A stretch of DNA of 64,000 bases from a virus (taxonomy: Duplodnaviria > Heunggongvirae > Uroviricota > Caudoviricetes), in IMG/VR virus record IMGVR_UViG_2910596823_000004, one strand, 5' to 3'. Every line of letters starts with the position of its first letter. Position 1 is the stretch's first letter. Positions 3,108 through 51,162 of this stretch are shown piece after piece. A program made the position numbers and the translations under genes. The notes below the pieces were generated by a model, which ran no database searches, was not told where the DNA came from, and was given only the letters and a program-made list of their open reading frames with translations.

Positions 3108-3302
3108 AGATCCCTCTAAAACACTCAGAGCGCATCCTTGCGCTCCTAAACAACTTGTTTAATTCAGTGCCTAACCAATTTGTTTTCTGGGTGTTTAAAA
3201 CCGGGCTGGGAAGTATTCAGAACCTGCTTCCGTATATATTTAATAAGTCACTTAGTATTTATATATACGGAAGCAGGCTCTCAAACTGGCTCCCAGACCG
3301 AC

Positions 3303-3569
3303 TTACATCACCAGTAATTTGGCTCTGGCACGACCTAACGTGGTCAGTCCCAGCGTGCGACGGTGGTAGCCGGAATCACCGCGCTGGCGGCACATTCCTT
3401 TCTCCACCAGCCCCTTTTTCACCAGTGCGCGGATAGAGAACTGCATACTCTGTTTGGTCGTTTTGTACGGCAGCACTTCAAGCAGCTCGTCCAGATCGAG
3501 CAGATGCCCACGCTCATGGCCTAAATTGATGGTTTTGATGATGTCTTTTTGTTTGTCGGTCAACGTCAT
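3303..3569 (-). CDS. Hypothetical small protein (88 aa), possibly winged-helix
   Basis: ORF in the same operon direction. It is followed by an 80-bp hairpin element. Confidence 0.4.
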   Translation of the reverse strand: MTLTDKQKDIIKTINLGHERGHLLDLDELLEVLPYKTTKQSMQFSIRALVKKGLVEKGMCRQRGDSGYHRRTLGLTTLGRARAKLLVM

Positions 3570-3578
3570 GGCAAATCC

Positions 3579-4478
3579 TTATGCCGGTAATGCAATTTCA
3601 AGAGGTTTATTCAAAGGCTGTTTGTCGAATGCCAGCAGTGGCAGCGTGTCCGGCAGCTGACGACCAAAGTCCGGGTTTCGGTACACGCCATACAGCGGAG
3701 ACGTGAAGCTCAGGTTGTGAATGTCCTTGAGCAGCTTCACGATGCTGGCCTCGTCCACCAGGCTGTCGGCAATGTCCTGAATCGTCGTGCCACGATTACG
3801 CCCGGCTTTGGCCAGGGAACTGTTCTTGTGGTAGTCAGCGACCAGATCACGCAGCGCACGACGACGGCGAGACTCACTCATGGCGAACAGCTCTTTGACG
3901 ATCGCTTCGTTGTCGCCAGGGTCAGAACGGAAATGACGCTGGAAGACGCGCAACGCACTCTCATAGCTCTTCGGACGCTCCGGACGGATGAACTGGAACC
4001 CTGCTTTCATGGCGAACGGGTTGTATTTGCTCATCGACGACTGGATCTCGATGATTGGCCGGTCGTGCATCCTGCTAACCAGGTTAATCATTCGATAGGA
4101 GACGCCGACACCGCGGTACTGAGTGTCAACAACGGAACGGCTGATCACGGCAAAGTTGTTGTTCACGTACCGGCCCCAATACTGGTTGGCCACGGTGGTA
4201 TTGGTGGTTGGCTTCAGCTTAGGAAACATGCGATGGCGAGGCGCCAGCAGCAGTTTCGGGTAAGCCATAACCACGACGCCCACCAGCCGGTCGTCCAGTT
4301 CGCAGCGATAATACGTTGGCGCGAACGGCTTACCATCCGTCTTGTAGTGCAGCGACTTCAGCGCGTGCCAGTCTTCAACCGTGCCTTTGGTAACGGTCAT
4401 ACGCTCCAGAAAGTCCAGATGACGCGGGAACTCTTCCGGGCGGTAGCGTTTGATGATGATGCCTGTCATGTCGATCAC
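3579..4478 (-). CDS. Hypothetical protein (299 aa). The central segment VVDTQYRGVGVSYRMINLV looks like GNAT motif A.
   Basis: Long ORF, tightly packed with its neighbours. Confidence 0.45.
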   Translation of the reverse strand: MIDMTGIIIKRYRPEEFPRHLDFLERMTVTKGTVEDWHALKSLHYKTDGKPFAPTYYRCELDDRLVGVVVMAYPKLLLAPRHRMFPKLKPTTNTTVANQYWGRYVNNNFAVISRSVVDTQYRGVGVSYRMINLVSRMHDRPIIEIQSSMSKYNPFAMKAGFQFIRPERPKSYESALRVFQRHFRSDPGDNEAIVKELFAMSESRRRRALRDLVADYHKNSSLAKAGRNRGTTIQDIADSLVDEASIVKLLKDIHNLSFTSPLYGVYRNPDFGRQLPDTLPLLAFDKQPLNKPLEIALPA

Positions 4479-4729
4479 CTACGCTCGATATTGGCATTGA
4501 TGAAGTCCAGGCGAAGCGATTCCATCGCCCCAACCATGACGTATGGACGCCCACCGTTATGCCAGCAATCCAGCACACTGCCGTCGTTGTTGATCATCAG
4601 CAGTGCCAGGCTCTGGCTTTTGCCTTCTCTGGCGTACTGGAGTGCTTCTTCCAGCAGGCGGATGACTTCAACGTTGTTGTTGTCAGCCTCTTTCGATGGC
4701 TTCAGCTCTACGATCTTCAAATCAGGCAT
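4475..4729 (-). CDS. Hypothetical protein (84 aa)
   Basis: ORF overlapping its neighbours by 4 nt and 8 nt (operon coupling). Confidence 0.4.
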   Translation of the reverse strand: MPDLKIVELKPSKEADNNNVEVIRLLEEALQYAREGKSQSLALLMINNDGSVLDCWHNGGRPYVMVGAMESLRLDFINANIERR

Positions 4730-5360
4730 ATTCCACCTTCACGCGTTCTTTGTAGTGCTTGGTGATCTGCATATCCGGGCGCAGCGCGTTCTTCAGGTCT
4801 TCGTGGGTCGTCGCCACCATTACCGTCGCACCAACCTTACGGGCGGCACGCTGGAGGTTCGACGCCACAACCTGGGCGGTTACACGGTCGAGAACAGCGC
4901 CAAATTCGTCGGCAGCCCAGACTTTCGCGCCGGACTCGATCAGCTTGGCGATCTTGAGACGGTATTTCTGGCCGTCAGACATCTCGGATGGCTTACGCAC
5001 AAAGAGATAGGCGTCGTTCAATCCGGCCATAGACAGCAGCCCCAGCGCTTCGCTGGTGGTTTTGCCCAGCTGGTCAATGACGTTAACCTCATTGTCGAAG
5101 GCAAAGTCATCGATGGAGGCTACAGAAAGCCCTTCATCCTTCATCTGGCGTTGCAGCTCGCGCAGCACAACGGATTTACCGGAACCGGATTGGCCGGTGA
5201 TGTACACCACGTCGCCCTGCTTCACTTCCAGCTCCAGATTGTCGTAAAGCGTCCACTCTTTTTCGTCCAGACCAAGACCGAACGATTCGGCAATCTCCAG
5301 CGTGCGCGTGGTTTTGTTCACGCGGGTCTGAAACGATACGTTGATGGTGTATTTGCTCAT
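4722..5360 (-). CDS. Minimal ABC-type ATPase
   Basis: Walker A GQSGSGKS, ABC signature MSDGQKYRL, Walker B VWAADEF, H-loop TTHE. Its start overlaps the upstream ParB-like gene (ATGA). Confidence 0.6.
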   Translation of the reverse strand: MSKYTINVSFQTRVNKTTRTLEIAESFGLGLDEKEWTLYDNLELEVKQGDVVYITGQSGSGKSVVLRELQRQMKDEGLSVASIDDFAFDNEVNVIDQLGKTTSEALGLLSMAGLNDAYLFVRKPSEMSDGQKYRLKIAKLIESGAKVWAADEFGAVLDRVTAQVVASNLQRAARKVGATVMVATTHEDLKNALRPDMQITKHYKERVKVEYA

Positions 5361-6058: not shown

Positions 6059-6723
6059 ACTAGGGCTTCCCCGGCGTTCTCAATTTCGTTACCGGTATTG
6101 ATCCCCTGCTCTTTGATGATGGTTTTGATGGTGTCGGCGACGCGATCTGACGCATCAAACGTCACCTTAAAGCGCATCGTCTGGTGTTCAGCGCCGACTC
6201 GCTCGGTTTTCTCGCGTTTGTCATCATCGACCGGCTCGTCATCGCCACGGGAGAGTGCTTCCAGCGCCTCAAGATCGATAACGGACGCTTTGGCGAGTGT
6301 TGCCGCCATCTCGTCGTCATACGGGGCGATATCGGACAACCGGTAGTCGATTTCAGACTGGATTTCTTCGATTAAGCGCTGCAAAGCGACCTGATCGTCT
6401 TCGCCGTAGCGCTCGTTATCGACGAGGGACATCTGCTTGGCCACCAGGTCGTTAATTTTGCCCACGGAGATGACGGGAACCGTTGAAATGCCCTGCTCCA
6501 TCGCGGCACGCCAGCGGTGTTCGCCACCGAGGATCTCAAAAATGCCCCCGTCCAGCTCCCGCGCCAGAATTGGCTTAAAAAAGCCCAATTTTTCGATAGA
6601 GCCTTTCAGTTTTTCGAAGTTTTGCGCTCCAACGGAGTTGGTATTCCAGGGATTCGGACGCAGGTTCGCGACTTCCACCTGCAGAATCGTAATTTTCACA
6701 TCCATAATTCTGATACAATCCAT
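6025..6723 (-). CDS. ParB/Srx-like N-terminal domain protein (second copy)
   Basis: LRPNPWNTNSV ... ILGGEHRWRAAMEQGISTVPVI, which resembles the ParB GERRxRA box. Confidence 0.55.
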   Translation of the reverse strand: MDCIRIMDVKITILQVEVANLRPNPWNTNSVGAQNFEKLKGSIEKLGFFKPILARELDGGIFEILGGEHRWRAAMEQGISTVPVISVGKINDLVAKQMSLVDNERYGEDDQVALQRLIEEIQSEIDYRLSDIAPYDDEMAATLAKASVIDLEALEALSRGDDEPVDDDKREKTERVGAEHQTMRFKVTFDASDRVADTIKTIIKEQGINTGNEIENAGEALVWLVDYYKERM

Positions 6724-6787
6724 TGTATAAGTACTTACTTACTATAATAGCCAATTACCATACAAAAGGCACGAAGGAAAGAGGTTT

Positions 6788-8347
6788 ATGACAGTTCGGA
6801 TTGTATCGAATGCAGTCAATGCGCTGATTTCTGGCGCTGATGACAACGTGAAACGGCTCGTTCAGGAGATGTTGAGCTATGAAGTGGAGGCTGGTGACTG
6901 GAAAGGAACCAGCACGATGTTCAACTGGAGCAAAAACGCGTTCCCGGCTGGGTTTGCGAAACCAGTTGCAGCCAACCTTCTGAAAGCTGGCATCAAATGC
7001 GTGCATGTGCGCAAGGAAAAAGCCCCCGCGCTGGGCAAGCCGAACCCGGTAGTTAACCCATTCCCGTATAACCCGGACTATGCGTATCAGGATCAGACAG
7101 TGGAAACACTGGTGCGCGAAGGGATGATGATTGCCCAGATTGCGACGGGTGGCGGTAAATCGAACGTAGCGTGTAAGGCAGCTGCTCGCATTGGTCGTAT
7201 GACGCTGTTTTTAACCACGCGATCGGTTCTGATGTTCCAGATGGCAGAGAACTTCCAGAAATCCATCGACTACCGCGCGGAGAATGGCGAGCCGTGGCTG
7301 AAAGGTCAGAAAGTTGGGGTGATTGGATCGGGTGAGTTCCAGGTCTCGCGCCATATCAACGTTGCCACGGTGCAGACCCTGGCCAGTTTTCTCGAAGAGC
7401 CACCGCGCGACGCATCACCGGAGAAAAAACAGTACCACCTGAAGCGCCGGGAACTGGTTAAGCGCTTTCTGTCCAGCGTTTCTCTGCTGATTCTGGAAGA
7501 GGCACACGAATCATCTGGTTCTAACTTCTACGACATCGCCCGGTTGTGCATCAATGCTGACTACCGTCTGGCGCTGACAGCAACGCCGTTCATGAAGGAC
7601 TCGACTGAAGCAAATATGCGTCTCATGGCCGTTGCTGGTCGCATTGAGATAAAGGTCACGGAGAAATATTTGATCGATCGAGGTATTTTAGCCAAACCCT
7701 ACTTTCTATATCATAAAATCGCGTACACTCCAGACGAGGTGCGGATTAGAGCCGAACTTGCTTCAAAACACCTGAATTTTCGGGTTGGAATGAGTACGGC
7801 TTACCAGAAAGCCTATCAGTTAGGCATCGTTTATAATCTGGGACGCAACGAAGCTATTGTGCGTGAAGCGTTAATGTACAAGAGCCACGGTCTGAACTGT
7901 ATGACGTTGGTTCGCCTGAAGCGTCATGGTCAGATCTTGATGGAAATGATGAAAGAGAGCGGCCTGAAGGTCGATTTCATCTACGGAGAATCAAACCAGA
8001 CTACCCGACAAGCAAAGCTCAACAGTCTGGCGGCAGGCAAGATAGATGTTCTGATTGGTTCAACCATTCTGGATGTTGGTGTCGACGTTCCAAGCGTAGG
8101 GGCGGTGATTCTGGGTGGCGGCGGCAAAGCCGAAGTTGAGATGCGCCAACGTGTTGGTCGCGGTCTTCGAGCCAAAAAGAATCAGGCTAACGTGTGCTTT
8201 ATTACCGACTTCATTGACGTGAGCAATAAATACCTCATGTCGCATTCATATGAGCGGAAGCACATTATCGACACGACGCCTGGATTTGCCGAGGGAGTAT
8301 TGCCGGTGGGTAGCACATTCGATTTCACTGTTTTGAATAGAGAGTAA
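6788..8347 (+). CDS. SF2 DEAD/DEAH-box helicase (UvsW-like role possible)
   Basis: Walker A IATGGGKS, DEAH box LILEEAHE, and a C-terminal helicase domain (GSTILDVGVDVP ... QRVGRGLR). Confidence 0.7.
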   Translation: MTVRIVSNAVNALISGADDNVKRLVQEMLSYEVEAGDWKGTSTMFNWSKNAFPAGFAKPVAANLLKAGIKCVHVRKEKAPALGKPNPVVNPFPYNPDYAYQDQTVETLVREGMMIAQIATGGGKSNVACKAAARIGRMTLFLTTRSVLMFQMAENFQKSIDYRAENGEPWLKGQKVGVIGSGEFQVSRHINVATVQTLASFLEEPPRDASPEKKQYHLKRRELVKRFLSSVSLLILEEAHESSGSNFYDIARLCINADYRLALTATPFMKDSTEANMRLMAVAGRIEIKVTEKYLIDRGILAKPYFLYHKIAYTPDEVRIRAELASKHLNFRVGMSTAYQKAYQLGIVYNLGRNEAIVREALMYKSHGLNCMTLVRLKRHGQILMEMMKESGLKVDFIYGESNQTTRQAKLNSLAAGKIDVLIGSTILDVGVDVPSVGAVILGGGGKAEVEMRQRVGRGLRAKKNQANVCFITDFIDVSNKYLMSHSYERKHIIDTTPGFAEGVLPVGSTFDFTVLNRE

Positions 8348-8349
8348 GC

Positions 8350-8628
8350 ATGAGCGAGAAACGCGCTATACACTGCCAGGTTCAGTTAACCGAAAAAGCA
8401 AACGACAAGCTGGAAACCTTTCAGAATCGACTGCGTGAACGCAACATAAAACTGTCAAAGGCAGACATCATTAATCTGGTGCTGTCCAACATGACGATGG
8501 CTGATTTTGATAAGGCAGCTACATCATTAGAGGCTTCAGCCAAAGCTCGCGAAAAGGTCATGAAGATTTACGAAAACTCGGGTATGACCAAAGAAGATCT
8601 GGCCGATATTCTAAAACGCCTCGATTGA
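8350..8628 (+). CDS. Hypothetical protein (92 aa)
   Basis: Coupled 3 nt after the helicase stop. Followed by the terminator at 8631-8660. Confidence 0.45.
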   Translation: MSEKRAIHCQVQLTEKANDKLETFQNRLRERNIKLSKADIINLVLSNMTMADFDKAATSLEASAKAREKVMKIYENSGMTKEDLADILKRLD

Positions 8629-8630
8629 GT

Positions 8631-8660
8631 ATCATGGCGCCTTGAGGCGCCATGATTTTT
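8631..8660 (+). terminator. Rho-independent terminator
   Basis: Hairpin atcatggcgcc-ttga-ggcgccatgat followed by TTTTT. Confidence 0.6.
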
Positions 8661-8676
8661 CGTAAAGATAAGGATT

Positions 8677-9111
8677 TTGTTCGGTACAATGAAACACGCA
8701 TTACTTCCTCTGATTGCTACCTCCGCGTTACTTATCACTGCATGTCAATCTCGTCCTGTTTCTGTCTCTGATGCAAAGCCAGCACCGCAGGCCAGAATAT
8801 TCAAATACCAATCTCCAGCGGCATCTACGCTGGTGGTACTGAGGGATAAAAGCATGGTGGGCGCAGGTTGCGACGCATCGATCTTCATCAATGGCGAAAC
8901 CGTTGCCAAACTTGAGACAGGTGAAAAAGTCACTTTTCATCTGGATGCCGGAGAATGGATTGTTGGCGCTTCACTGGAAGGCGCCGGGCTGTGCGCACTG
9001 AACCCTGCTCGTCAGGAACGCGAGACGATCACCAAAGCTGGCGAGACGAAAGTCTTCCGGGTGTTCACCAGCAACGCAGGTGACATCGATATCCTACCAA
9101 CGACACTGTGA
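8677..9111 (+). CDS. Putative lipoprotein
   Basis: Signal peptide with lipobox LITAC. Start may be 8689 (MKHALL). Confidence 0.5.
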   Translation: MFGTMKHALLPLIATSALLITACQSRPVSVSDAKPAPQARIFKYQSPAASTLVVLRDKSMVGAGCDASIFINGETVAKLETGEKVTFHLDAGEWIVGASLEGAGLCALNPARQERETITKAGETKVFRVFTSNAGDIDILPTTL

Positions 9112-9116
9112 CGATA

Positions 9117-9643
9117 TGACGAATATTACTGACATCACCTACGGGATTCCTGCAGAAGTCTGGCCGCGAGATTACACCAACGTGGAGAAGGCGCTGATGT
9201 TCTGGCGTAAGTCTCTCATTCCTGTAAGGGTCACGATGGAAGATGGTCAGGTGTTCTGCATGTACGTTCAGGGTCTCATGTCGTCGCGCAACAAAGTCGA
9301 CCTTTGCCCTGCCCCGTTCGACAAAGAAAATCGTATAAGGCTCCCACTTGAGCGAATCAGCACGATTGAATCAGGTGTGACAGAAGGCATTGCGCACGAT
9401 TTCACGGGTCGGACAACGGTACACCCAGACTATGTGGAGAATCGGCCATCTCGCCGTGATTTCTTCAAAATTTGTCGCCAGGCTCATGAGATGCAGAAGT
9501 CTATAAGGGTCTACATGGCGGATGGCCGTGAAATTGAGGGTGTGTCTTCAGGCGTAGACGCTTGCCAGGTCACGCTCAACATGGGGGACGGTCGGAAGAC
9601 AGTCGTCATGTTCGATTGGGTCGAACGGATTTTACCGTTTTAA
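9117..9643 (+). CDS. Hypothetical protein
   Basis: ORF (MTNITDITYG...). The track start at 9080 overlaps the previous gene, so the ATG at 9117 is preferred. Confidence 0.45.
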
Positions 9644-9654
9644 ATCAATAAGGG

Positions 9655-9686
9655 TAATAACCGGCTAAGTCCGGTTATTATTTTAT
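9655..9686 (+). terminator. Rho-independent terminator
   Basis: taataaccgg-ctaagt-ccggttatta followed by TTTT. Confidence 0.6.
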
Positions 9687-9861
9687 GTGTCACTTCCCGT
9701 TATATTTATTTCCCCTAATCCCGATTCCGTTTTAAATATATAAGGGTGATTGACCGAATAGGAAATTTATTTAGGCAACACCTTCGAGAAAACGCGTTTT
9801 ATTTCTAAGACTTTGATTTTTATTGAAGAAAAATTTTTTCGTTCCCGCGTAAAAAACTCTT

Positions 9862-9891
9862 GATTTTAATTTCTGTATATCGATAATTAGT
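9862..9891 (+). promoter_or_regulatory. Candidate sigma70-like promoter for the AT-rich moron
   Basis: TTGATT, a 17-nt spacer, then GATAAT-like -10, in an AT-rich UP-like context. Weak inference. Confidence 0.3.
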
Positions 9892-9965
9892 CACATCGAA
9901 AGCGAACACGCTAACGATAAACAAATAACAAATTAAGTTATCAATATTACATAAGGATTAATATC

Positions 9966-10616
9966 ATGTCTAACGTTGCTATCTCTAAAAAATCCATCAT
10001 CGACGCTGCTGTAGTTATCGCTAATGAATTACAAGTTGCAGCCAATAATGCTACTCAGACTTATAACAATCATTATCAGAATGGTACGCACACAAAAGCA
10101 GATAAAGCTAACATGCTTGCAGCGACTACCAAACTTGCATACTTCACCAACAACGTTTTAAACGCTGTTAATGATGAGAAATTAGCTGGTGTCTTTTACT
10201 ACGCGATTAAAGCAAGCAAACAAGCGCCAGAAGTGTTTTTCCGCGAAGCTATGACCAATAGCTATTCACTCGAAAAATTGGTTTATCTGGTTAAATCTAT
10301 CAAGTCTGGTAAATGCGTTTATTCCGTCGCTGATATGTCCGGATCTCGTGTATTCGCATTAATCGAAATGATTAATGATGAACTGGAAACATTCACAAAT
10401 GGCGCTGTTTTCGATTTGATGAATGAAGCCAAAAAAGAAAATGAAATTAAATTGGACGCTGGATATACGCAAGCCAACCAGCTGATCAATCTTTGTGAAC
10501 GTCTCGGACTGGTCGAAAAGATCAAAGGAATGGGCGCAGCGAAAAACGGATCGCAGCAATATCGCTTTATCAAGAATGATTTTTATAACTATCTGGCTGA
10601 TGCTTTCAAAGCGTAA
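9966..10616 (+). CDS. Hypothetical protein (216 aa) in a very AT-rich island
   Basis: Clear ORF whose A/T-rich codon usage differs from the backbone. Flanked by terminators. Confidence 0.55.
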   Translation: MSNVAISKKSIIDAAVVIANELQVAANNATQTYNNHYQNGTHTKADKANMLAATTKLAYFTNNVLNAVNDEKLAGVFYYAIKASKQAPEVFFREAMTNSYSLEKLVYLVKSIKSGKCVYSVADMSGSRVFALIEMINDELETFTNGAVFDLMNEAKKENEIKLDAGYTQANQLINLCERLGLVEKIKGMGAAKNGSQQYRFIKNDFYNYLADAFKA

Positions 10617-10626
10617 TTAGATGGAT

Positions 10627-10654
10627 ATAGCGCCCACTATGGGCGCTATTTTTA
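10627..10654 (+). terminator. Rho-independent terminator (copy 1)
   Basis: atagcgcccactatgggcgctat followed by TTTTT. Confidence 0.6.
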
Positions 10655-10666
10655 AGGATAAAAATC

Positions 10667-10822
10667 ATGATTAGTTATGACCAGATCCGCGCGGAATATC
10701 GCGCAAAATATCGCGCTTATAAACTTGAATTAATCGACGACTTAAAAGCGCAACGTGACAAATTAAATTTTACGTTTTCTGATTTGCTTAACAGCAAAAG
10801 AGACTGTAAACGCAAACGTTAA
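10667..10822 (+). CDS. Small basic hypothetical protein (51 aa; below the track cutoff)
   Basis: ATG 7 nt after an AAGGA RBS (MISYDQIRAEYRAKYR...). Ends before the second terminator copy. Confidence 0.35.
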   Translation: MISYDQIRAEYRAKYRAYKLELIDDLKAQRDKLNFTFSDLLNSKRDCKRKR

Positions 10823-10872
10823 TATTTGCGCTTGTCTGAAATGATCGGAAAACTGCAAAACAGCATTTAAGC

Positions 10873-10900
10873 AATAGCGCCCACTATGGGCGCTTTTTTC
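10873..10900 (+). terminator. Rho-independent terminator (copy 2; same stem as 10627)
   Basis: aatagcgcccactatgggcgct followed by TTTTTT. Confidence 0.6.
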
Positions 10901-10921
10901 GTTTCAAGATCCGCACATCAT

Positions 10922-10947
10922 AACGCGCCATTGTTGGCGCGTTTTTT
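10922..10947 (+). terminator. Terminator-like hairpin
   Basis: aacgcgcca-ttgtt-ggcgcgtt followed by TTTTTT. Confidence 0.45.
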
Positions 10948-10949
10948 AT

Positions 10950-11470
10950 TGTCTGAAGTCAGCCAAAACAGACCAAAAATAAGCGCCATAAACGCGCCAA
11001 TTTAACGCGTTTTTATGTGTGGTGGTACATACCCATTACCCACAATAAAAATCACGTTATAGCGCGTTTTACAGCGTTTTAGCGCGTGGATTATTTTGTC
11101 GTGTCGTGGGCGTGATCGTCTGGCGATAGCTGGCGACGTGATCCGCGCTATCCTTCGGGACGTGTCGGCAATGTTGGCGCTATCCGTGGGCGCTCGCGTA
11201 TCATTGGCACGTTGGCGCGACGTGTACGCGCTTGCAGTGGTTTACCCACGGATTCACATAATCACATAGCGAAAGCTATCTGGATGGCTCAGGGGCTGAA
11301 ACCCCACCAGCGCTACCCCAGCGCCGCTACGCAATTTCTGGCGCGATTCTGGGCTTCTCCCGCTCTGTTTTCTACATAAAGGCAAACCCAGCCGTTTCCC
11401 GAAAATTTCCTGACCGTTTCCCTTCGGTTCCCCGGACAGCTCTCTGGCCGTTTCTGAAATTCCCTGCGGC
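10950..11470. repeat. Repeat-dense non-coding region
   Basis: Contains GCGCG hairpins, three copies of GCGACGTG, two of GCGCTATCC, and three CCGTTTCCC copies (minus-sense GGGAAACGG). It holds no credible ORF. Confidence 0.5.
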
Positions 11471-11514
11471 AGCTGGTGGACGAAAAGAAAGGGGCGTTTC
11501 CGGCCCCTCCCCTC

Positions 11515-11997
11515 TTACTTGCCAGCCATGATGTGAATGCGGTTCTTTCCGTACACCTCTTTCACGTATTCCCCGCACGAGACACTCCACGAGTCGATTC
11601 CTGCTTCGTAGGTGACGTTTTTGCACTTGATGGCATTGTTGGCGATGCGCATCCCCTCCCCCACTGCTTCCTGTTCGCTGAAGTCGAACCCGGATTCTGT
11701 TTTAACCCATAGCGCGATCTGCGTGGCGAACTCGATGAGTTTTGACTGGCAGAAGCGACCGCTGCGTACCGGGAAGATGAATACGCCAAATCCCGAAGTG
11801 GAGACATACGCTTTCTCAAATACGCGCTTATGGCGACGGTTGCAGATTATGTCATTGGTGATCTGCTGTTTCTCTTTACCGGACAGTTCGATGGTTACAT
11901 TGTCACGCCAGGCGCCCAGCACGCTTTTCTCGTTATCAGAGAACGTCACAGAAATATGGCCATGCGCAGGGGTGTTAACAGTAGCGATAAAATTCAT
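11515..11997 (-). CDS. Hypothetical protein (160 aa)
   Basis: ORF directly preceded by a class-B motif at 12011-12045. Confidence 0.5.
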   Translation of the reverse strand: MNFIATVNTPAHGHISVTFSDNEKSVLGAWRDNVTIELSGKEKQQITNDIICNRRHKRVFEKAYVSTSGFGVFIFPVRSGRFCQSKLIEFATQIALWVKTESGFDFSEQEAVGEGMRIANNAIKCKNVTYEAGIDSWSVSCGEYVKEVYGKNRIHIMAGK

Positions 11998-12202
11998 GGT
12001 GATAATCCTTTAAACAACTTGTTTTCTTGTTTGTTTAATTATCGCTACGCGCATAAGGCGTCCAAGCGTTCTGTTTCGGCAACTGGTGGCCGGCAGGGAT
12101 TCGGAGGGTTGTTCGGTAGCCTGGCGGTAAGAGGTGGGTGTTTTTAGCCTGCGGGAAACAGGATGGTCATTTAAGGCCACCAGCATGGGTGGCCTCGTTT
12201 TC

Positions 12203-12499
12203 TTAGTGGAGCAGACCGACGTCGATGGTATCGCCGGAGCCATCCACGCGGATCATCAGCATGGCGAAAGCATTTAATGGGTATCCTGCGTGCCAGTCCG
12301 GGAAGCGGTCATCGCGCATGAAGTCGGCAATGTCATAAACGCTGTCCTCAAAGCGGAAGAAGCGGGCATCACATTGTTCGTCCTGTTCAATGTGATCCAT
12401 TTCCTGCTGCTCTTCCGGCGACAGGTCGAGCCAGGATTCCAGCCATACGTTTTCAGCTTTAGGGGAGATAGTGAAATCGGTCATGTGCATATCTTCCAT
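12203..12499 (-). CDS. Hypothetical acidic protein (98 aa)
   Basis: ORF preceded by a class-B motif at 12503-12537. Confidence 0.45.
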   Translation of the reverse strand: MEDMHMTDFTISPKAENVWLESWLDLSPEEQQEMDHIEQDEQCDARFFRFEDSVYDIADFMRDDRFPDWHAGYPLNAFAMLMIRVDGSGDTIDVGLLH

Positions 12500-12611
12500 G
12501 CGTAAACATCTTGTTTTCTAGTTGGTGTAATTATCGCAGTGTGGATAAGGCAAAAAACATTTTGTTATCGGGGATAAGAAAATGGCGCGGGGTACGCGCC
12601 ATTGGAAGGGA

Positions 12612-13134: not shown

Positions 13135-13446
13135 TCAGGCTGTCGCCAGGAGAGAGGCACGCTGGATTTCTTGCTGGGCTGCTTTGTTCGCCTCCAGTAG
13201 CGCCTGTTCCAGCTCTCCTTCCGGCCAGATAATCTGTTTTGCCATCCACCCTCTTCCACTCTGGCGACGCACACTCATGACGTAACGCGTGCGGGAACCA
13301 TTGTCGAATGAGACCAGCGTCTCTTTGAACAGGCGAATGGCAGTGCCGTTGGCGATGATATCGAGCAGGGTCAGCTGGCTCATTGCGGTTGGCTTTTCTT
13401 TACGTGGCTGGCCCGCACTCAGTTTGGTGATCATCGCGTTTTTCAT
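13135..13446 (-). CDS. Hypothetical protein (103 aa)
   Basis: ORF preceded by a class-B motif at 13458-13493. Confidence 0.45.
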   Translation of the reverse strand: MKNAMITKLSAGQPRKEKPTAMSQLTLLDIIANGTAIRLFKETLVSFDNGSRTRYVMSVRRQSGRGWMAKQIIWPEGELEQALLEANKAAQQEIQRASLLATA

Positions 13447-13586
13447 AATTCACTCCGTAAACAACTTGTTTTCTTGTTGGTGTAAATAATACCAGCGAGA
13501 AAACGGCTACAAAGCATAGCGTTACGGCGCTGCGCAGCCCCGGAGGTTGCAAACAGCAAAAAGCCACCGTGCTGGTGGCCTCACGC

Positions 13587-13815: not shown

Positions 13816-14031
13816 TCACTTCGTTTCTGACATCGTGCAGTTCCACGCGACGGACATTGGGTTGTCCTCGATATGGAAATCAAACGTCCCTTCTCTGTAT
13901 CCTTCAGAGATGAGCGTCGCCACGCGGCCAGCAACATCCAGGGAACGGATAACGTCATCGAGGGAGATCTCACACTCGGATGACGCTTCCTCGCCACAGA
14001 GGGTGATGCTGATATTCAGATGTTTGTACAT
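13816..14031 (-). CDS. Hypothetical protein (71 aa)
   Basis: ORF preceded by a class-B motif at 14047-14081. Confidence 0.4.
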   Translation of the reverse strand: MYKHLNISITLCGEEASSECEISLDDVIRSLDVAGRVATLISEGYREGTFDFHIEDNPMSVAWNCTMSETK

Positions 14032-14176
14032 GTGTTTCTCCTTTGTCTAAACACATTGTTTTCTTGTGTGTGTTATTATCGCAATAAGAAAACGGGGAAA
14101 AAGAATTCCTTAAAGGCTGATGTGCTTGTGCCGATTTATTGATATGTATGTATCTGGCTAACTCAGAGGGAATGTG

Positions 14177-14429: not shown

Positions 14430-15700
14430 CGATTTCACCACCAAAACCCGTAACCCTTTACACTAGATCTGGCTTCCCGACATGAGCGTGCGAAGCTGAT
14501 CTGGTCTCAACGCTCAACTGCGGGATTCACCAATTCCCGCACTCTTCAGGTGAATGAGGAAAAGGCATACTCCCGCAGCCGCCCCTCGCTCTGAACCGGG
14601 ATGTACCCGTTTCCCGACCGGCAGCCAGCCTTTTCTCGGTTCGTATAGCGGGATTCCCACCGTTTCCCTGAAAACCTCCAGCCTTTTCCCTACGGCGATG
14701 CCCCGTTCCTGAAAAGGGACATGGCCTTTTCCCTGGATGGCCCGAAGGTTGACCGAAGGGGTGGATAGGGACGTTACGGGGGATGAAAACTATGGCTTGA
14801 ATTTCTACGAAGAAAGTAGCGATACCCCTCTTCCCCTTCCCACTTATACCTCCAGTTAAATCTCTACGGATTTTCTCTCCTGTGGACGTGCAAACCTTCC
14901 CCCTGATAACACTCTATACGGCGAGTATTCCTTTGGGTGAAATGGGTGGTTTGTTCTCTCTACCGGCGTATGTGGTTTCGTTCTTTTTGAGGTGGTTCTT
15001 CTCTGTGTTTTCGTCTGGGGTGTTCTCGTCGTTTTGGGGAGTGTTCTTCTCCCTGTATGGAGTAATGGCAGGTGCGCTTTTCTCTTCGTTTACGTGAAAT
15101 TGTGGAAGTGTGGGTAATGGCAGTAGGGCGCTTTAGTTGTTCTCCGCATATGAAGTAATGGCGTTCCCTGCTATTCAGGGATTTGCGCTCTCTTTCGGGG
15201 TAATGGTGGGTAAAGGAGATTGCGACGGTTCCTGTTCTGGTCTGGGTTTGTCCGGGGTTTCGTTCTGGCTGTTCTTCTCCGTGTATTGGGTAATGGCATA
15301 TAGGGGTTTGCGTGCACGAGCTGCATTCACGGTTGCCTGGGGAGATTAGGTGGGTGCTCTGTAGCCTGGGGCAAAGAGGTGGGTCTTTTCGGTAGCCTGA
15401 CAGGAAGAGGTGGGTGTTTCCGGGATTGTGGGTAATGGCGTCTCTGGGTTTCCTGTGGGTGTGGTTAACTTGTTTTCTTGTGCCTGAAAACAACTTGTTT
15501 AGATGTCCAACATAACGCAACGGGAGCGCTTCTGAGCGTGTCTGCTTTTGGGTGGTATCACGAGTCGTTTTTGACGTTTTGGTCGCAGGGAGATGGATTC
15601 TGGTGCGCAGGAATTTGGGTATAAGAGATGGCGTGCGAAAACATCAATTTTTTAGACCAAATCAGGGGAAAGCGTTGACTTTTCGTTGACGTGTTATTTA
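14430..15700. repeat. Large non-coding repeat region, G+T-rich on the plus strand
   Basis: Six copies of GTAATGGC, roughly 44-50 bp apart or multiples of that. Further repeats of TAGCCTG..AAGAGGTGGGT and CCTTTTCCC/CCGTTTCCC. The only ORFs are compositional artefacts. Confidence 0.55.
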
Positions 15701-15853
15701 TTTGTTTTCTTATGGGGGTAATTGGCTTAAATGCCTTGTCACGCCTGGGTTGGGGTAGGTTGGAGAGGTGGGGAAAGTGGCGATCAACGGACTCTTATAG
15801 AAATCCTCAATTTGTGACCGCCAATGTCAACGGATTGATTAAGCTAGTTGTGC

Positions 15854-17044: not shown

Positions 17045-17185
17045 ATTGTCCTCTTAAATGTCTCGTTCCAGTAATCGGTTGACTAAGGGGGCCGATCAAC
17101 TACTTAGCCAAGATATTATAGCTCTTGTTATTTATTTGTTTTCTTATATGTGTAAACAAATAAACGCTACAATTTCGACAATAAC

Positions 17186-18151: not shown

Positions 18152-18426
18152 TCGAAGTGAACCGCGTCAAAGCCGGCATCCACTATGGTCTGTATGTTAG
18201 AGATCGTCTCTTCGGAAATGCCATACTCACGCAGCTCTTCTTTCCAGTCATTCCCTCGCATTCCAGCACGAACAATCCAGCCGTACTGTGTACCGTGTAC
18301 CCAATTCAACCCGCGATCAGAAAGTGGGTCGAAGCAGGCAATGGGTAGCCGTTCTGAATCCGCTGCCGTTACGTGGGCGGTGCTGATCACCGCCGTCTTA
18401 TACGATTCGGTGATTTTCAGCATCAT
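18106..18426 (-). CDS. Hypothetical protein (106 aa)
   Basis: ORF. Its stop is followed by a T9 run and an imperfect hairpin. Confidence 0.45.
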   Translation of the reverse strand: MMLKITESYKTAVISTAHVTAADSERLPIACFDPLSDRGLNWVHGTQYGWIVRAGMRGNDWKEELREYGISEETISNIQTIVDAGFDAVHFDCDAELVDGLPGWDW

Positions 18427-18677
18427 GCCTTCTCCTTTGGAAACAGAATGTCGGCCGTGTCAGAAATGACATCCCAATTCACGCCGACGCTGGCGTCATG
18501 GCACTCTTTGATTTTTCGCAAAACCTGAACGCACTGTTCGTCAGTCAGGTCTGGTCGCACTTCACCTACATCTTCCTTGTGCCACATCACCATCAGCAGC
18601 GGCTCGTCTTCTGGGTAGTTCTCCAGCTTTTCGATGATGTCTTTTGCGGTTCCGAGCATGATTAACCCCTTAAACAA
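18423..18677 (-). CDS. Hypothetical protein (84 aa)
   Basis: ORF preceded by a class-B motif at 18671-18703. Confidence 0.45.
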   Translation of the reverse strand: MFKGLIMLGTAKDIIEKLENYPEDEPLLMVMWHKEDVGEVRPDLTDEQCVQVLRKIKECHDASVGVNWDVISDTADILFPKEKA

Positions 18678-18864
18678 TTTGTCTTCTTGTTGGTGTTATT
18701 ATCTCAAATAACAAAAGGCAGAAAACAAGATGTTTAAGGGATGATTAGGTGAGTTTGAAGTCGTCTATGTCATCAACAAACTCCATATACCTGGCTTCGA
18801 CACTCGACAATCTGATCAGATACGCAAGCCCGTAACTAAGTGAAGTGGGTTGCTCCAGCACAAA

Positions 18865-19011: not shown

Positions 19012-19200
19012 TTTTCCCGCCTCATAACACTGTATAAATAAACAGTAATAATTATTGCAGTACCGGTCAACTTTGCTGGTTAAGGGAATAACAAGGTGGT
19101 GAAAACAATTTGTTTCGGCACTTGAGATTTTGCAAATCGCACATACATGGAAAACGGCAATTATTGAAACCTGATTTGACCCATGTGAAAGGAGGAAACG

Positions 19201-19404: not shown

Positions 19405-19454
19405 TTTCACCAACCAGAAAACAAATTGTTAAAGGCCACAATAGTGGCCTTCAT

Positions 19455-20853: not shown

Positions 20854-22557
20854 TCATTTTACACGCTTGAAAACGTATACGCTGACAGTGATTCCGGTGT
20901 CTTCAAACTCGTCAGTAAACGACTTCCCTTTGGCATAAACGTAATTATCCAGCGACATCCAGTTCAGAACTGGCGCATCACCCGGCAGTACAGCCACCAG
21001 TCGCCCGCCGACTTTAAGATGCTCCAGCGCGGCCAGCGTATGCTCTCTGTGACGGCCAAGAGAGTAGGGCGGGTTCATGACGATTTTGTCGAACTGATAG
21101 CCTGCGTTGTCCTCAGACCACTTCATGAAGTCACAGCAGACCGTATTTGTGTACCCCTTGCCAAGCAGGATATCAGCGAAGAGAGGTGCGACTTCTATGC
21201 AGGTAACGTCTTCCGGATTGGCGTCGATGCAGGCCAACAGATCTCCGCGCCCGGCTTCAGGCTCCAGCAGCTTCTCACCTAGCTTCAGCTCGATGGCTCT
21301 GGCAACGTACTCCGCTATCAAACGTGGGGTAGGGTAGAACTGGTGTGATTTTGTATCCGGTATTAAGCCGGTGGCCACAATCGTATTGAGCGTATGGCCG
21401 ATCTCATACGGGAACTGCCAGTGCTTTTTCTCCTGCACGCCGCCAATGAAGTTCAGTGTGCGCTCAAGCTCTTCCACCTGTGACTTCTGTAGGTTGGAAT
21501 CAGAGAAGTACCAGACGCCTTTGTCTTTGCTGAATCGCCCGTCGCGCAGCGCGGTACGAACCGGCTCGGAGATCGTCTTCTGGATTAACCCGAACTCTTT
21601 TGGTGCCCGTGTTTTGGGTGCAGTACGGCATGGCGCCGGGATTGCTGCAGGCATACTGTAAGCCAGCACCTCATTCAGCTTCCAGGCCACGTCAGGATGT
21701 ATTTCAAAGTGAACGTTGCCGTTCTTGAACATCTTCACGCGCATCAGGTTTCCGTCGACATTCATCCAGTCACCGGTCTGGCAGTCGTTTGCCCGGTACG
21801 CAGCTGATAGCATCTCAGTTGTGCGGTTGATGGTGATGAACTCTTTGTGTGCGAAGAAATGAAGCATGACGCGCAGGTCGTCGATGTAGTCCTCTTTCCG
21901 GTAGTTCACGCTGACGCTGTCCCGCCAGAACTCGGAAATGCAGTTGGCGATGATCAGACGCTCGCTAAAGCCGTTCGTCTTATTGGTCTTGTGGGCAGGA
22001 CTCAGCGCTTTAAACAAGCCATACACGCGCTCAGAGAGATATTTGTGCCTGTCATTCAGCAGATTGAGCATCGTGGGGATGACCGTTTCTGCTTTGAACT
22101 CCGGCACACCAACGAACTCCTTAACCTTCATCTGGTAGCCGGTTCTGTCAGTCCTGATGGTCTCCTGCTTGCCCTCGATGAACTGCTCCCGCCACTCGTC
22201 GCGGCGGGAAGCTGGCATGATCAGCAGAACGTTTGTCATATCCGTGACCTTCTTCCAGTACTCGGCCCAGATATTCTGTTTCACCCATTCAAGGTCGACC
22301 TTATCCAGCCAGGCTCTGTTAAAGCGTGTGCGCTCGTCATCCGGCCGGTGGTTGAGTCGCAGCAGGCGGTTAATCATGTTGTGGCGTTCGTCGCCATAAA
22401 CGAAGTCGTGAACCTGATGCATGAATGCGATCTCTTTCTCGCACTCGGCCACAATTTCGTGGATGACGTTCATTTCCTGCCGGTAGTCGATATCAGTGTT
22501 TGGGGTGATAGCGTCAATGATGGAAAGGGCTGTATTCATGATTGCACCATTAAACAA
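20854..22557 (-). CDS. DNA N6-adenine methyltransferase with a long N-terminal extension
   Basis: C-terminal class-I SAM MTase with NPPY (FDKIVMNPPYS). The real start is probably the ATG at 22539 (MNTALSIID), since the track start lies inside the upstream class-B motif. Confidence 0.6.
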   Translation of the reverse strand: MFNGAIMNTALSIIDAITPNTDIDYRQEMNVIHEIVAECEKEIAFMHQVHDFVYGDERHNMINRLLRLNHRPDDERTRFNRAWLDKVDLEWVKQNIWAEYWKKVTDMTNVLLIMPASRRDEWREQFIEGKQETIRTDRTGYQMKVKEFVGVPEFKAETVIPTMLNLLNDRHKYLSERVYGLFKALSPAHKTNKTNGFSERLIIANCISEFWRDSVSVNYRKEDYIDDLRVMLHFFAHKEFITINRTTEMLSAAYRANDCQTGDWMNVDGNLMRVKMFKNGNVHFEIHPDVAWKLNEVLAYSMPAAIPAPCRTAPKTRAPKEFGLIQKTISEPVRTALRDGRFSKDKGVWYFSDSNLQKSQVEELERTLNFIGGVQEKKHWQFPYEIGHTLNTIVATGLIPDTKSHQFYPTPRLIAEYVARAIELKLGEKLLEPEAGRGDLLACIDANPEDVTCIEVAPLFADILLGKGYTNTVCCDFMKWSEDNAGYQFDKIVMNPPYSLGRHREHTLAALEHLKVGGRLVAVLPGDAPVLNWMSLDNYVYAKGKSFTDEFEDTGITVSVYVFKRVK

Positions 22558-22641
22558 ATTGTTTTCTTGTTGGTGTTATTTTCCCAAAGTTGAAAAGGCG
22601 TAAAAGCAGCATTCACAGGCGTTGCAGCTGATTTAAGGCGT

Positions 22642-23251: not shown

Positions 23252-23361
23252 ATGTGTTTTTTCCTTATGTTTTTAAACAAGTTGTTTTCTAGATTGCGTT
23301 ATTGTGGCGTGACTGAAAAGGTGGGCAAACGCTACGTAAAGGCGGACACCCACACTGACGG

Positions 23362-24225: not shown

Positions 24226-24285
24226 ACTCTCATTGGTTGATTGGCTAAACAATTTGTTTTAACAGTGCCGAAAAGAGATTTGGCA

Positions 24286-24978: not shown

Positions 24979-25387
24979 TTGGATTCCATTCAGTGTCAGA
25001 AAGAGTTGCGGCTGGCTTGGCCAGCCGCCTTTTGGCGTTCCATCCTGGAACAGTACCTAACCGGTACTTCGTCATCCTGACGAACGGTAAGATACCTGAT
25101 TTAAAATGATAGGTAAATGCTTACTTATTACTTTGTGACAAAAATCCAATATCACGCTTGTGAGGCATATCAGATGCGGAGTAGACGGCGATCATAGTAG
25201 GCCGTTCATTAGATCGGCTTTGAGAGCGGATTGGACCAAACCCTAGATAGCGAGAGAGCACGGTGCTAATACCCGGTCACGTCACCAGCCAGGCGACAAC
25301 AGATGAGTTCATGGCAACATTTCGGAAGGTATCTTCGTATCATTATGTGGTTAAATATACATAATTTAACCCAATGGAATTTTAGCC

Positions 25388-25990
25388 ATGCTAGCCTTCT
25401 GGCACGAAAATTCAGACCTCATCTCCGCATTTTTAGCAGCTCTTTTAGGTGGCTTTTTCACGATGCTAGGAGTGACAACTCAGGTGAAACAGCAAGCAAA
25501 ACAGCAGGCAACAGCGGCCAGAGAGAAGCGTATAACAACGCTATTGGGTGTCAGAGAGGAAATAGACTCACTGATTAAACTGTATCAGGCCAGAATGGCA
25601 GAAGAACTCAAAAAATACGACCAGAACTCACCGTTCGATAACATTTTCCCCATTACTCAAAACTACTTCACGTTCTATGAAGCCAACTCGGCATCCCTAC
25701 CTGAAGTTCATAGAGAAACACTCTCAAAAATTGTGGCTTTTTATACAAGCGCAAGAAGCCTAATTGATTCCTATCGCGGTAATAATGCACTTATCGAACG
25801 GCTGGACTCCACGCAGGTTGCAAGTGACATTACTGGCAACAAAGAGCATCTTGCACACCTGAAAAGATACACCATCCTAGCCACAAAGTACGGCCGCGGA
25901 TTAATGATGATTCATGAAGAGGTCATGCTGCGCTATAAACAGGTTATAGAAGCCATCGATGGTGAAATCTCACAGTTACAATGCAGTTAG
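25388..25990 (+). CDS. Membrane-anchored hypothetical protein (200 aa; N-terminal TM)
   Basis: ORF on the opposite strand, inside an apparently lower-GC island. Confidence 0.45.
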   Translation: MLAFWHENSDLISAFLAALLGGFFTMLGVTTQVKQQAKQQATAAREKRITTLLGVREEIDSLIKLYQARMAEELKKYDQNSPFDNIFPITQNYFTFYEANSASLPEVHRETLSKIVAFYTSARSLIDSYRGNNALIERLDSTQVASDITGNKEHLAHLKRYTILATKYGRGLMMIHEEVMLRYKQVIEAIDGEISQLQCS

Positions 25991-26187
25991 CACTACAATC
26001 TGTCCGCATATTACTCGACGCGGTCGGGCTTAACGGGCTGAAGATCCACTGTGAGCGAGAAGATGACTGTTACGCGTTGAAGTTAATTGTATTACTTAGG
26101 TAAACATTATCATTTTCCAGACGTTAAGTTGTATCTTTGATAGGATTAAAAAAGGTATAGATAGCTTATGTTACTGAAGGAATAAAA

Positions 26188-37792: not shown

Positions 37793-37875
37793 ATGGCTTT
37801 AAACAAATTGTTATCTTATTGGTTTAAACAAGGTGCTCAACTCAATGAAAAGGTGGGGATTTCTCCCCACGCTCA

Positions 37876-45549: not shown

Positions 45550-45559
45550 TTCTTCAGAA

Positions 45560-47525: not shown

Positions 47526-47539
47526 AAGAGACACTTGGA

Positions 47540-49165: not shown

Positions 49166-49172
49166 AGTGTTA

Positions 49173-49896: not shown

Positions 49897-49936
49897 GATA
49901 GGTAAATACTAACTTATATATTTTTTGCTGTAAATA

Positions 49937-50213
49937 TCACTCAAAAGTGCTGATGCCTAAGATACGCTCAAGATGAGCCGCGTCTTCATCGCTTACCGGC
50001 ATCGTGTCGTCGACGTACCAGCAACTACCGTTGTGCCAACAAACACCGTCATCATCGACATACACAGAATCTGCATCAATGCCTGTGTACTCAACGAGAT
50101 TGCGCTCAATTGCCGCTTGAATTTCTTCATCGTTCAGCCCATCACACTTGACCATGAACAACGGGTAAACGTCATAGTCGGTGCTGGCTGAAATGCGAAC
50201 CAAAATCTTCATG
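49937..50213 (-). CDS. Hypothetical protein (~92 aa)
   Basis: ORF. Start chosen at the ATG after a GGAGAAAACAC RBS (MKILVRIS). Confidence 0.4.
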
Positions 50214-50280
50214 TGTTTTCTCCTTGTTGGTAAGTACTTATTTATATTAATGTGCGCCATGCGGCGCACAATCATTGTGT

Positions 50281-50691
50281 TTAGGCTGGTGGAAAGAACT
50301 TCTCCAGCGTGCGGTCGACAGCCTTATCAATGTGCATCAGATGCCAGACGACCATATCTTTGTTTCCCAGACCGCGGGTGTAGATCACGTCGAACTTACG
50401 CCAGGCGGCGTGAAACCAGTGCGGTGTATCATCAACCGGCAGATTCTCTCCAGCCTCCTTGAAGTACTTGAGCAGCATGGCCTGTTCAGCGGTGGGCGTC
50501 GGGCCAATCTCTTCCGCATACATTCTGATGAAACGCTGCCAGTCGGCTTCATCTTCTGAAGGTTCCGGTGAGTTCATCTCTGCAATCGCCTCACGCAGCT
50601 GCGTCGCCCATTCTGGCTCCGGGAAGCCCTGGGCAATTTCGGTATCCACTACATCCAGCGCAGCGTTGGCCGCGTCATACAGTTTCTTCAC
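50281..50691 (-). CDS. Hypothetical protein (136 aa)
   Basis: ORF. Confidence 0.4.
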   Translation of the reverse strand: MKKLYDAANAALDVVDTEIAQGFPEPEWATQLREAIAEMNSPEPSEDEADWQRFIRMYAEEIGPTPTAEQAMLLKYFKEAGENLPVDDTPHWFHAAWRKFDVIYTRGLGNKDMVVWHLMHIDKAVDRTLEKFFPPA

Positions 50692-51064
50692 TCTTTTTCT
50701 CCTGCATTAAAAGGAACACGGTCATTGCCGCTCTGAAAGGGTTAGGGTTCTGGATCAGATGTTGTGGAGTTGAACTATCCACCGTTCTGTGGGCCGCTCT
50801 CCACTCACCGGGCTGTCTTGCAGGGACTACACCAATTCTGTGTCGGTAAATAATGTCCCACGCATCCTCCGGATCGTTACACCAGTCGAAGGTTCCGGCT
50901 CCGTTCGGACCGATGGCGACCACTGCTGTGTAATCACCTTCCTGTGAGCCTTTCCAGCCGTATTGTGAGATGAGCGGTCGATGGCCGGTGGCTTCCGCGA
51001 CCAGACAGTTGATTTCAAAGTCCGTCATCTCGCTGTAATTTTTCATTCCCGATCTCCTTCTCAT
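50675..51064 (-). CDS. Hypothetical protein (129 aa)
   Basis: ORF preceded by a class-B motif at 51130-51162. Confidence 0.4.
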   Translation of the reverse strand: MRRRSGMKNYSEMTDFEINCLVAEATGHRPLISQYGWKGSQEGDYTAVVAIGPNGAGTFDWCNDPEDAWDIIYRHRIGVVPARQPGEWRAAHRTVDSSTPQHLIQNPNPFRAAMTVFLLMQEKKSEETV

Positions 51065-51162
51065 CCGTTGCCGAACAACTATGTGGCGTTGTCACTTTGT
51101 ACTTCTACGGATGGTAATTCCGTATTAGTAACCAATTTGTTTTCTTGTTGGTGATAATACGG

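Follow-up and report, generated by a model that had tools for sequence, protein, structure and literature searches.

A probable promoter-leader cassette with a conserved dyad recurs across the SSU5-like phage-plasmids

A 64,000-nucleotide stretch of viral DNA (Caudoviricetes, IMG/VR record IMGVR_UViG_2910596823_000004), here called the window and meaning that whole stretch, carries many copies of a short motif that is a real, lineage-wide regulatory cassette of SSU5-like phage-plasmids; no prior description of it was found. The upstream part of the cassette is very probably a host sigma-70 extended -10 promoter. Its operator part, centred on a 13-bp palindrome, would be a DNA site, often doubled as a phased pair, for a phage-encoded repressor, a reading to which we give about an even chance. 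The cassette would define a regulon of ~15-20 units and predict their transcription starts, supply bait sequence for the regulator, and explain the sites at which gene cassettes are exchanged.

The window is, judging by sequence identity, part of an SSU5-like siphovirus phage-plasmid, as its 11-25 kb portion is 95.6% identical to Salmonella phage SSU5 and 98.8% identical to the S. Senftenberg plasmid pCFSAN006211, and it has matches in 775 plasmid records from Klebsiella, Escherichia, Enterobacter, Yersinia and Salmonella. Nearly all genes of the window are encoded on the minus strand, with a single plus-strand operon at 6789-10871. SSU5-like phage-plasmids are widespread across Salmonella, E. 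coli, Klebsiella and Enterobacter, and published work describes resistance genes carried by phage-plasmids (PMC9600943, PMC12217456). A literature search for promoters or operators of SSU5 or pHCM2 returned none, and no published description of gene-expression control in SSU5-like phage-plasmids was found.

The first-pass annotation had listed the motif at 15 places, and motif-like sequence is present at every one of them; its consensus is likewise correct. Allowing at most one mismatch, 16 copies of the palindrome AAACAANTTGTTT (also written AAACAAnTTGTTT) are present in the window, far above the shuffled expectation (mean 0.34, maximum 3). It was described as perfect, which applies to eight of the 16 matches and not to the others. 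A 50-nt weight matrix, built from eight copies that align gap-free over ~50 nt in gene orientation, picks out 8 full copies, every one of them on the minus strand, with scores of 55-72 bits where shuffles stay below 0. A 27-nt leader matrix returns 17 sites above 10 bits compared with none in 10 shuffles, and these include every coordinate listed earlier, the diverged copies at 15694-15720 and 17128-17154 among them. Copies overlooked in the first pass are a plus-strand one at 19406-19432 and two upstream inverted ones at 18723-18735 and 12556-12566. The statement that an ATG follows 10-20 nt on before at least 14 genes was too generous: it applies to 7 copies (12011, 12503, 13458, 14047, 18671, 22551 and 23274), and the remainder are partial, variant or farther from an ATG. 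The full cassettes are as follows (ORF, open reading frame).

22551..22600, minus strand: full cassette, 71.8 bits, with GCCTTTT, TGG-GAAAAT and AACACCAACA-AGAAAACAATTTGTTTA; ATG of a DUF4942/methylase-like gene 11 nt on, terminator 22664-22647 upstream.
18671-18720, minus strand: full cassette, 69.4 bits, with the upstream inverted dyad AAACATCTTGTTT at 18723-18735; gene 18424-18660 begins 10 nt after the motif.
12503-12552, minus strand: full cassette, 68.4 bits, with the upstream inverted dyad AACAAAATGTT at 12556-12566; precedes gene 12204-12485, terminator 12603-12581 upstream.
14048..14097, minus strand: full cassette, 67.9 bits, with TGC-GATAAT and a varied central triplet (AAACAATGTGTTT); ATG 16 nt on (71-residue ORF, 13816-14031).
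12011..12060, minus strand: full cassette, 67.7 bits, with a TTGGAC -35-like hexamer 16 nt from GATAAT; ATG 13 nt on (gene 11515-11997).
13458..13507, minus strand: full cassette, 60.3 bits, with TGG-TATTAT; ATG 11 nt on (gene 13135-13446), terminator 13582-13560 upstream.
23274..23323, minus strand: full cassette, 58.5 bits, with a weaker -10 (CACAAT, no TG); ATG 20 nt on (190-residue ORF).
51129..51178, minus strand: full cassette, 55.3 bits, right arm TTGGTT; directly past the hairpin GGCGTCCA..TGGACGCC and a T run, with a leader of at least 64 nt to the ATG of 50675-51064.

The promoter spacer of the 12503 copy also contains a perfect DnaA-box-like TTATCCACA (12540-12548, minus strand), which is kept or nearly kept in most orthologous promoters.

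Read from 5' to 3', a full cassette consists of a weak -35, GCCTTTT, a spacer, TGn-GATAAT (or TGG-TATTAT), ~10 mostly C/A bases and AGAAAACAAnTTGTTTA, followed after 1-8 nt by the Shine-Dalgarno sequence and then the ATG. The spacer drifts between orthologues; GCCTTTT is conserved. The proposal that GATAAT serves as a -10 is borne out by its context, with the hexamer (GATAAT, TATTAT or GAAAAT) standing at a fixed offset and preceded by TG in 150/183 unique copies from related genomes and in 5/8 full window copies. It is this combination of TG and GATAAT at a fixed offset that marks the upstream part as very probably an extended -10 sigma-70 promoter. Candidate -35 elements are weak matches (TTGGAC at 16 bp in one family, CTTTTA or GTTTTT in others), and a consensus -35/-10 scan did not call the cassette sites, in line with extended -10 promoters that have a poor -35; promoters of this type can function without a -35 element. 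Transcription would start ~7 nt past the -10, inside AACACCA, placing the 17-bp AGAAAACAAnTTGTTTA at about +5 to +21 and the dyad centre near +14, between the predicted start and the Shine-Dalgarno sequence. A promoter for a T7-like single-subunit RNA polymerase can be dismissed, as the motif has a sigma-70 extended -10 and the annotations of SSU5, Cyrano and pCFSAN006211 list no RNA polymerase.

The dyad is tied to the promoter: its distance from the -10 is fixed while its distance from the start codon spreads over 10-20 nt. Of 142 unique sites, 90 have the dyad beginning 13 nt past the -10 and 22 have it at 14 nt (112/142 together). AAACA and TGTTT, the two arms, are conserved; where an arm does vary, the change mostly affects one side only, and the central triplet shows free variation.

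A second, inverted copy of the dyad is found upstream of many of these promoters. The upstream AACANNNTGTT is present in 40 of 130 unique promoter contexts (~30%; ~10 of 24 promoter families), exclusively at -47 or -46 counted from the A of AGAAAACAA; elsewhere within 90 bp it is absent. The upstream copy retains the asymmetric AGA flank in inverted form and reads TAAACAnnTTGTTTTCT on the sense strand. The two dyads lie 51 bp apart centre to centre, or ~five helical turns, with the upstream one over the -35 region. Most simply, the upstream copy would be a second DNA operator; since it precedes the inferred start and keeps one fixed phase, DNA recognition is the simpler reading.

Conservation of the cassette extends across the whole lineage. 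An exact-pattern scan of IMG/VR identified 64 loci, mostly on contigs of ~100-110 kb, and the 144 unique 64-mers drawn from them retain the -10 and the core with diverged spacers. The complete SSU5 genome holds 20 motif matches, including two further copies before parA and a cobT-like gene; its 29-kb structural/lysis block is motif-free except for the tandem pair before TerS. Using a FljA-like gene as the family marker in IMG/VR, 3-10 dyads were found in 45/45 loci with at least 20 kb around it, and the same core is present in relatives whose marker protein is only 54-58% identical, as well as in the Klebsiella phage-plasmid pJN2-26 and the E. coli phage Cyrano. A search of 5426 complete E. 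coli genomes with a 42-nt consensus gave 883 matches, spread over 246 genomes; every one lies on a plasmid and none on a chromosome. Among the 25 E. coli records listed, every match but one falls under no annotated feature. This restriction to one phage-plasmid family argues for a phage-encoded binding partner. Together with the conserved arms and the placement of the inverted copy only 51 bp upstream, it also speaks for the first-pass suggestion that the dyad is the site of a dimeric regulator.

Expression of motif-bearing genes could be assessed in a relative of the window element, the Cyrano prophage in E. coli LF82, whose lysogen transcriptome is the only one found (PMC9928086, S1 Table; background 9.8 normalised counts). 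Counts for genes carrying the motif include 7.1 for TerS, 7.8 for CYRAN_47, 5.7 for CYRAN_58, 12.9 for nrdB, 7.0 for CYRAN_85, 7.1 for CYRAN_87, 7.5 for CYRAN_101, 12.8 for CYRAN_105, 12.2 for CYRAN_106, 6.7 for CYRAN_110, 25.5 for CYRAN_111 and 21 for dnaB; 13 motif genes fall in the range 5.7-25.5, with parA, at 50, as the sole exception. Near-background mRNA from strong-looking promoters fits repression, and the notion of one co-regulated class, here a repressed one, is in keeping with these values.

The remaining copies in the window lack one or more parts of the cassette.

37800..37826, minus strand: leader module only, 32.3 bits, TAAACCAATAAGATAACAATTTGTTTA, between nrdA and nrdB; no convincing -10, nrdB ATG 31 nt on.
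3172-3198 and 3147-3173, minus strand: two tandem dyads before TerS, 22.7 and 17.1 bits, without the GATAAT -10; followed by a GC hairpin (3128-3145), a T-tract and the TerS ATG at 3107 (39 nt on).
24246..24272, minus strand: dyad with a GGCACTG flank like the TerS-proximal site, 10.1 bits; after the stop of a 62-residue gene, followed by a terminator-like hairpin, Rha ATG 68 nt on.
19085..19115, plus strand: diverged copy GGAATAACAAGGTGGTGAAAACAATTTGTTT, facing ydfZ from 86 nt upstream.
19406..19432, plus strand: leader module, 32.6 bits, directly past the ydfZ stop and running into the hairpin GGCCACAATAGTGGCC.
17128..17154, minus strand: left-half-only variant AAGAAAACAAATAAATAA, 14.3 bits, 83 nt before the ATG of a 396-residue gene.
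15694..15720, minus strand: left-half variant, 12.4 bits, no ORF behind; opens onto a 1.4-kb ORF-free stretch.
15462..15500, minus strand: perfect dyad AAACAAGTTGTTT (15488-15500) followed by a second left half CAAGAAAACAAGTT; no ORF behind.

Dyads without the C/A-rich leader or a -10 therefore exist (TerS, 24246). The copies before TerS, Rha and nrdB lack a convincing -10 and so do not simply represent the same promoter. The GC hairpin before TerS is kept in pJN2-26 and one further relative locus, which suggests, together with the T-tract, a terminator or attenuator heading the late operon. Terminator-like hairpins also lie upstream of 12552, 13507, 22600, 51178 and 37826, thus before about half of the copies, and not upstream of the others. 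The two variants at 17128-17154 and 15694-15720 align with each other, and the 19406-19432 arrangement is conserved in SSU5 and its IMG/VR relatives.

Several sequence features adjoin these copies. A 17-bp inverted repeat, CCTGCTTCCGTATATAT ... ATATATACGGAAGCAGG, lies at ~3212-3268, the point at which the linear SSU5 record starts and stops, and is a possible cos or pac site. On the plus strand, 19406-19451 would yield a leader-only RNA of ~45 nt if a promoter is present. Downstream of the motif variants, 14450-15850 (minus sense) is a 1.4-kb ORF-free, C/A-rich stretch with strong GC skew, iteron-like GCCATTACCCA-type repeats and 29-31-nt direct repeats at 15042-15298 and 15329-15419; it may encode a non-coding RNA or serve as an origin.

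In the reading we favour, a phage-encoded dimeric DNA-binding repressor would occupy the dyad, or both dyads cooperatively or via a loop, and would silence ~ten early or accessory transcription units in the plasmid-prophage state. The promoter-less copies before TerS, Rha and nrdB would be roadblocks or extra control points. The cassettes would also double as homologous joints for gene-cassette swapping, because the same ~50-65 bp recurs between short genes.

A number of observations weigh against this proposal. The left half AGAAAACAA persists where the right arm is a Shine-Dalgarno sequence or AAATAAATAA, and a pure dyad operator fails to explain such survival without a right arm. The element always lies on the sense strand just before the ribosome site, as an RNA operator would. 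The parA gene has the motif, yet it is expressed in the Cyrano lysogen, and low lysogen mRNA in general would result just as well from translational repression and subsequent decay as from repression of transcription. A literature search for start, binding or reporter data on SSU5-like elements found none. The search for a repressor assigned none: fold and profile comparisons of a 92-residue core protein of the plus-strand operon brought no significant match, the XRE-type gene annotated as 'putative repressor' in Cyrano and present in pCFSAN006211, which lies outside the window, has no dyad in its control region, and at the position of the XRE-type gene the SSU5 record annotates only a tRNA gene.

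Two candidate trans factors are encoded in the operon opposite to the cassettes.

8350..8628, plus strand: 92-residue core protein, a weak candidate for recognition at the DNA level; same operon as the next.
9116..9643, plus strand: FljA-family protein, candidate trans factor for recognition at the RNA level.

The N-terminus of the 92-residue protein looks ribbon-helix-helix-like by eye. CYRAN_117, its counterpart by position, size and operon, reaches the operon maximum in the Cyrano lysogen (114 normalised counts), with the helicase gene at 46 and the FljA-like gene CYRAN_114 at 18. The first-pass annotation had instead proposed an 88-residue protein and Rha as candidate regulators, and neither gains support: the former, encoded next to TerS, has a winged-helix look by eye, no family or PDB match and a Cyrano homologue that is silent in the lysogen, and at the position of Rha both Cyrano and pJN2-26 carry other genes. 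Pfam, PHROG and PDB searches with the 88-, 92- and 216-residue proteins gave nothing usable. No motif was found near the FljA-like gene, the helicase operon promoter or the XRE-type repressor region, leaving these without autoregulatory copies, and a palindrome at 6712-6727 was rejected as an autoregulatory site as it is not conserved. Separately, pCFSAN006211 (9623-10485) and close relatives carry an integrase, a 128-residue protein and a divergent 70-residue gene just upstream of the cobT-like gene. The 128-residue protein, annotated 'putative repressor' in Cyrano, has a weak helix-turn-helix match (HTH_31, E 0.003, under the Pfam cut-off). SSU5 may be without this integrase and repressor, a likely immunity switch.

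Among the alternatives, an RNA operator is the main and a serious rival, although we regard it as rather unlikely. Here the leader (A-rich AGAAAACAA followed by U-rich UUGUUUA) would be bound in the mRNA by the FljA-family protein, blocking ribosome loading and speeding mRNA decay on 15-20 transcripts, by analogy with Salmonella FljA on fliC mRNA. FljA is said to repress fliC at the level of translation in Salmonella, as reportedly described by Yamamoto and Kutsukake in 2006 and by Bonifield and Hughes in 2003. The cassette shares with that system an encoded protein of the same Pfam family and an element in the 5' leader near the ribosome site. However, identity between the phage protein and chromosomal FljA-type proteins is only ~35%, the leader shows no significant similarity to the fliC 5' untranslated region (UTR), no flagellin gene is linked, and one target is replaced by 15-20. 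The 9116-9643 product matches PF03614 (FljA) over its full length (E 1e-96) and is annotated 'transcriptional regulator/repressor'; its structural model shows two tandem Sm/Hfq-like domains and no helix-turn-helix. Its gene is a core gene of the SSU5-like family, in which the FljA-like proteins form a separate clade on contigs of ~105-115 kb with 54-97% identity inside the clade, and it is intact in the Klebsiella phage-plasmid. Klebsiella is classically non-flagellate, which suggests a target within the phage and makes host fliC unlikely as the sole one. Further points in favour are expression of CYRAN_114 in the lysogen, survival of the left half without the right arm, and an unstructured leader with 10-20 nt between its end and the start codon. 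According to citations in PMC2652032, FljA binds fliC mRNA and blocks its translation.

Other observations fit a site in RNA poorly. The inverted copies at a fixed 51 bp fall outside the inferred transcript, exact dyad symmetry including the C/G position is needless for a single-stranded RNA site, and the -10 is held at a tighter spacing than the start codon. In local alignments, the leader and the fliC 5' UTR score no better than shuffles. The absence of a motif near the FljA-like gene also counts against RNA recognition, as does the failure to see covariation between divergence of the FljA-like protein and the motif, whose core is the same at 54-58% protein identity. An IMG/VR search with the FljA-like protein returned only the SSU5-like clade among the matches listed (80 loci), and co-occurrence of protein and motif is uninformative because both are confined to one lineage. 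A known RNA family or an RNA hairpin, the latter raised in the first pass as a 5' UTR alternative, was rejected: the dyad by itself has a folding energy of -0.7 kcal/mol, folding of seven leaders is no better than that of their own shuffles (z-scores -0.56 to +1.62), and an Rfam scan of the window gave no match.

A more elaborate and distinctly doubtful version would have the tandem-Sm FljA-family protein, made in the prophage state, bind the leaders of 15-20 mRNAs to block translation and promote decay, with the 19406-19451 RNA as a possible decoy titrating the protein at induction and with DNA and RNA sites maybe both used, amounting to phage-plasmid-wide post-transcriptional immunity. If the binder is indeed this Hfq-like protein, prophage control would be post-transcriptional, and the understanding of FljA itself could change too.

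Recombination is relevant to a third possibility. Homology blocks of the window at 1-26 kb were compared with SSU5, Cyrano, pJN2-26 and two more distant loci, and within 11-25 kb, 16 of 40 block ends lie at most 60 bp from a motif, where ~14% would be expected from the space that motifs occupy; intergenic position may explain part of this excess. One could suppose that no dedicated regulator exists, and that a constitutive early promoter with an unstructured, C/A-rich, translation-friendly leader has been spread by duplication and recombination, the dyad being incidental. We consider this improbable. It would account for cassettes located between short genes of the variable region, often behind terminators and at homology breakpoints, and for leaders less structured than shuffles, and it has an established precedent in the PeSL cassettes of T4-like phages, promoter-terminator units that mediate the shuffling of small ORFs (PMC2839356, PMC4122927). 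It does not account for a 17-nt core that is almost unchanged at 54-58% protein identity while spacer bases drift, for strong-looking promoters that give only background mRNA in the lysogen, or for an inverted copy at one fixed distance, which would be puzzling if nothing bound it.

Positive control or a host factor is very unlikely. A phage activator, an antiterminator or a host protein acting on the dyad would switch the class on after infection or induction, which would suit the weak -35, the terminator-like hairpins after the TerS and Rha copies (as in antitermination-controlled late operons) and the winged-helix-like 88-residue protein whose Cyrano homologue is off in the lysogen. However, a centre at +14 is unusual for an activator, an extended -10 promoter needs no activation, SSU5 has no annotated sigma factor or RNA polymerase, and the lack of chromosomal copies among the E. 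coli genomes disfavours a host protein. The host-factor sites considered (IHF, KdgR, PurR and the 434 operator) were set aside for misfits in spacing or sequence.

The cassette resembles in kind three known systems: the C1 operators of phage P1, the stoperators of mycobacteriophage L5 and the T4 PeSLs. The P1 genome, according to what Lobocka and colleagues reportedly described in 2004, has dispersed operators in the form of asymmetric 17-mers bound by the repressor C1. P1 is also a phage-plasmid with one short operator at many scattered promoters; in both elements, operators stand before replication, methylase and accessory genes, and one repressor could silence many units. The P1 site is asymmetric and different in sequence, whereas the cassette dyad is fused to a near-identical promoter and leader and is often paired 51 bp apart. 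No C1 homologue is annotated, and no search aimed at C1 was made. Phage L5 is said, from work by Brown and colleagues in 1997, to have ~30 asymmetric 13-bp stoperators, mostly promoter-free, at which bound repressor blocks elongation. As in L5, many cassette sites lie in transcribed regions, in one orientation and downstream of promoters, but most copies stand at a fixed distance from a -10. The T4 PeSL is likewise a repeated composite regulatory sequence (a terminator stem-loop followed by a sigma-70 early promoter) that flanks small variable ORFs and marks joints of insertion, deletion or replacement. It has no sequence relation to the cassette, which adds a transcribed leader with a dyad and has a terminator before only about half of its copies; the PeSL reports (PMC2839356, PMC4122927) describe no operator inside the element. 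A true T4-type PeSL was rejected, as the element is an SSU5-like siphovirus phage-plasmid and the motif is confined to that lineage.

Three further regions of the window were noted. An ORF-free stretch of 645 bp at 10871-11516 contains repeated GCGCGTTTT-type units and several GC hairpins that have T runs after them. Immediately beyond the DNA polymerase gene, 56517-57386 (plus strand) encodes ORFs of 76 and 185 residues, the latter with a PHROG match to 'excisionase and transcriptional regulator'. Cyrano has a gene pair at the same place, CYRAN_50/51, matched on position and size only; it carries the annotation HicB/HicA and shows good expression in the lysogen. Finally, 25300-28100 is low in GC (0.41) and carries plus-strand genes at 25388-25990 and 26188-26997; at this position pCFSAN006211 has an IS110 transposase and another gene, and the region is probably a cargo insertion site.

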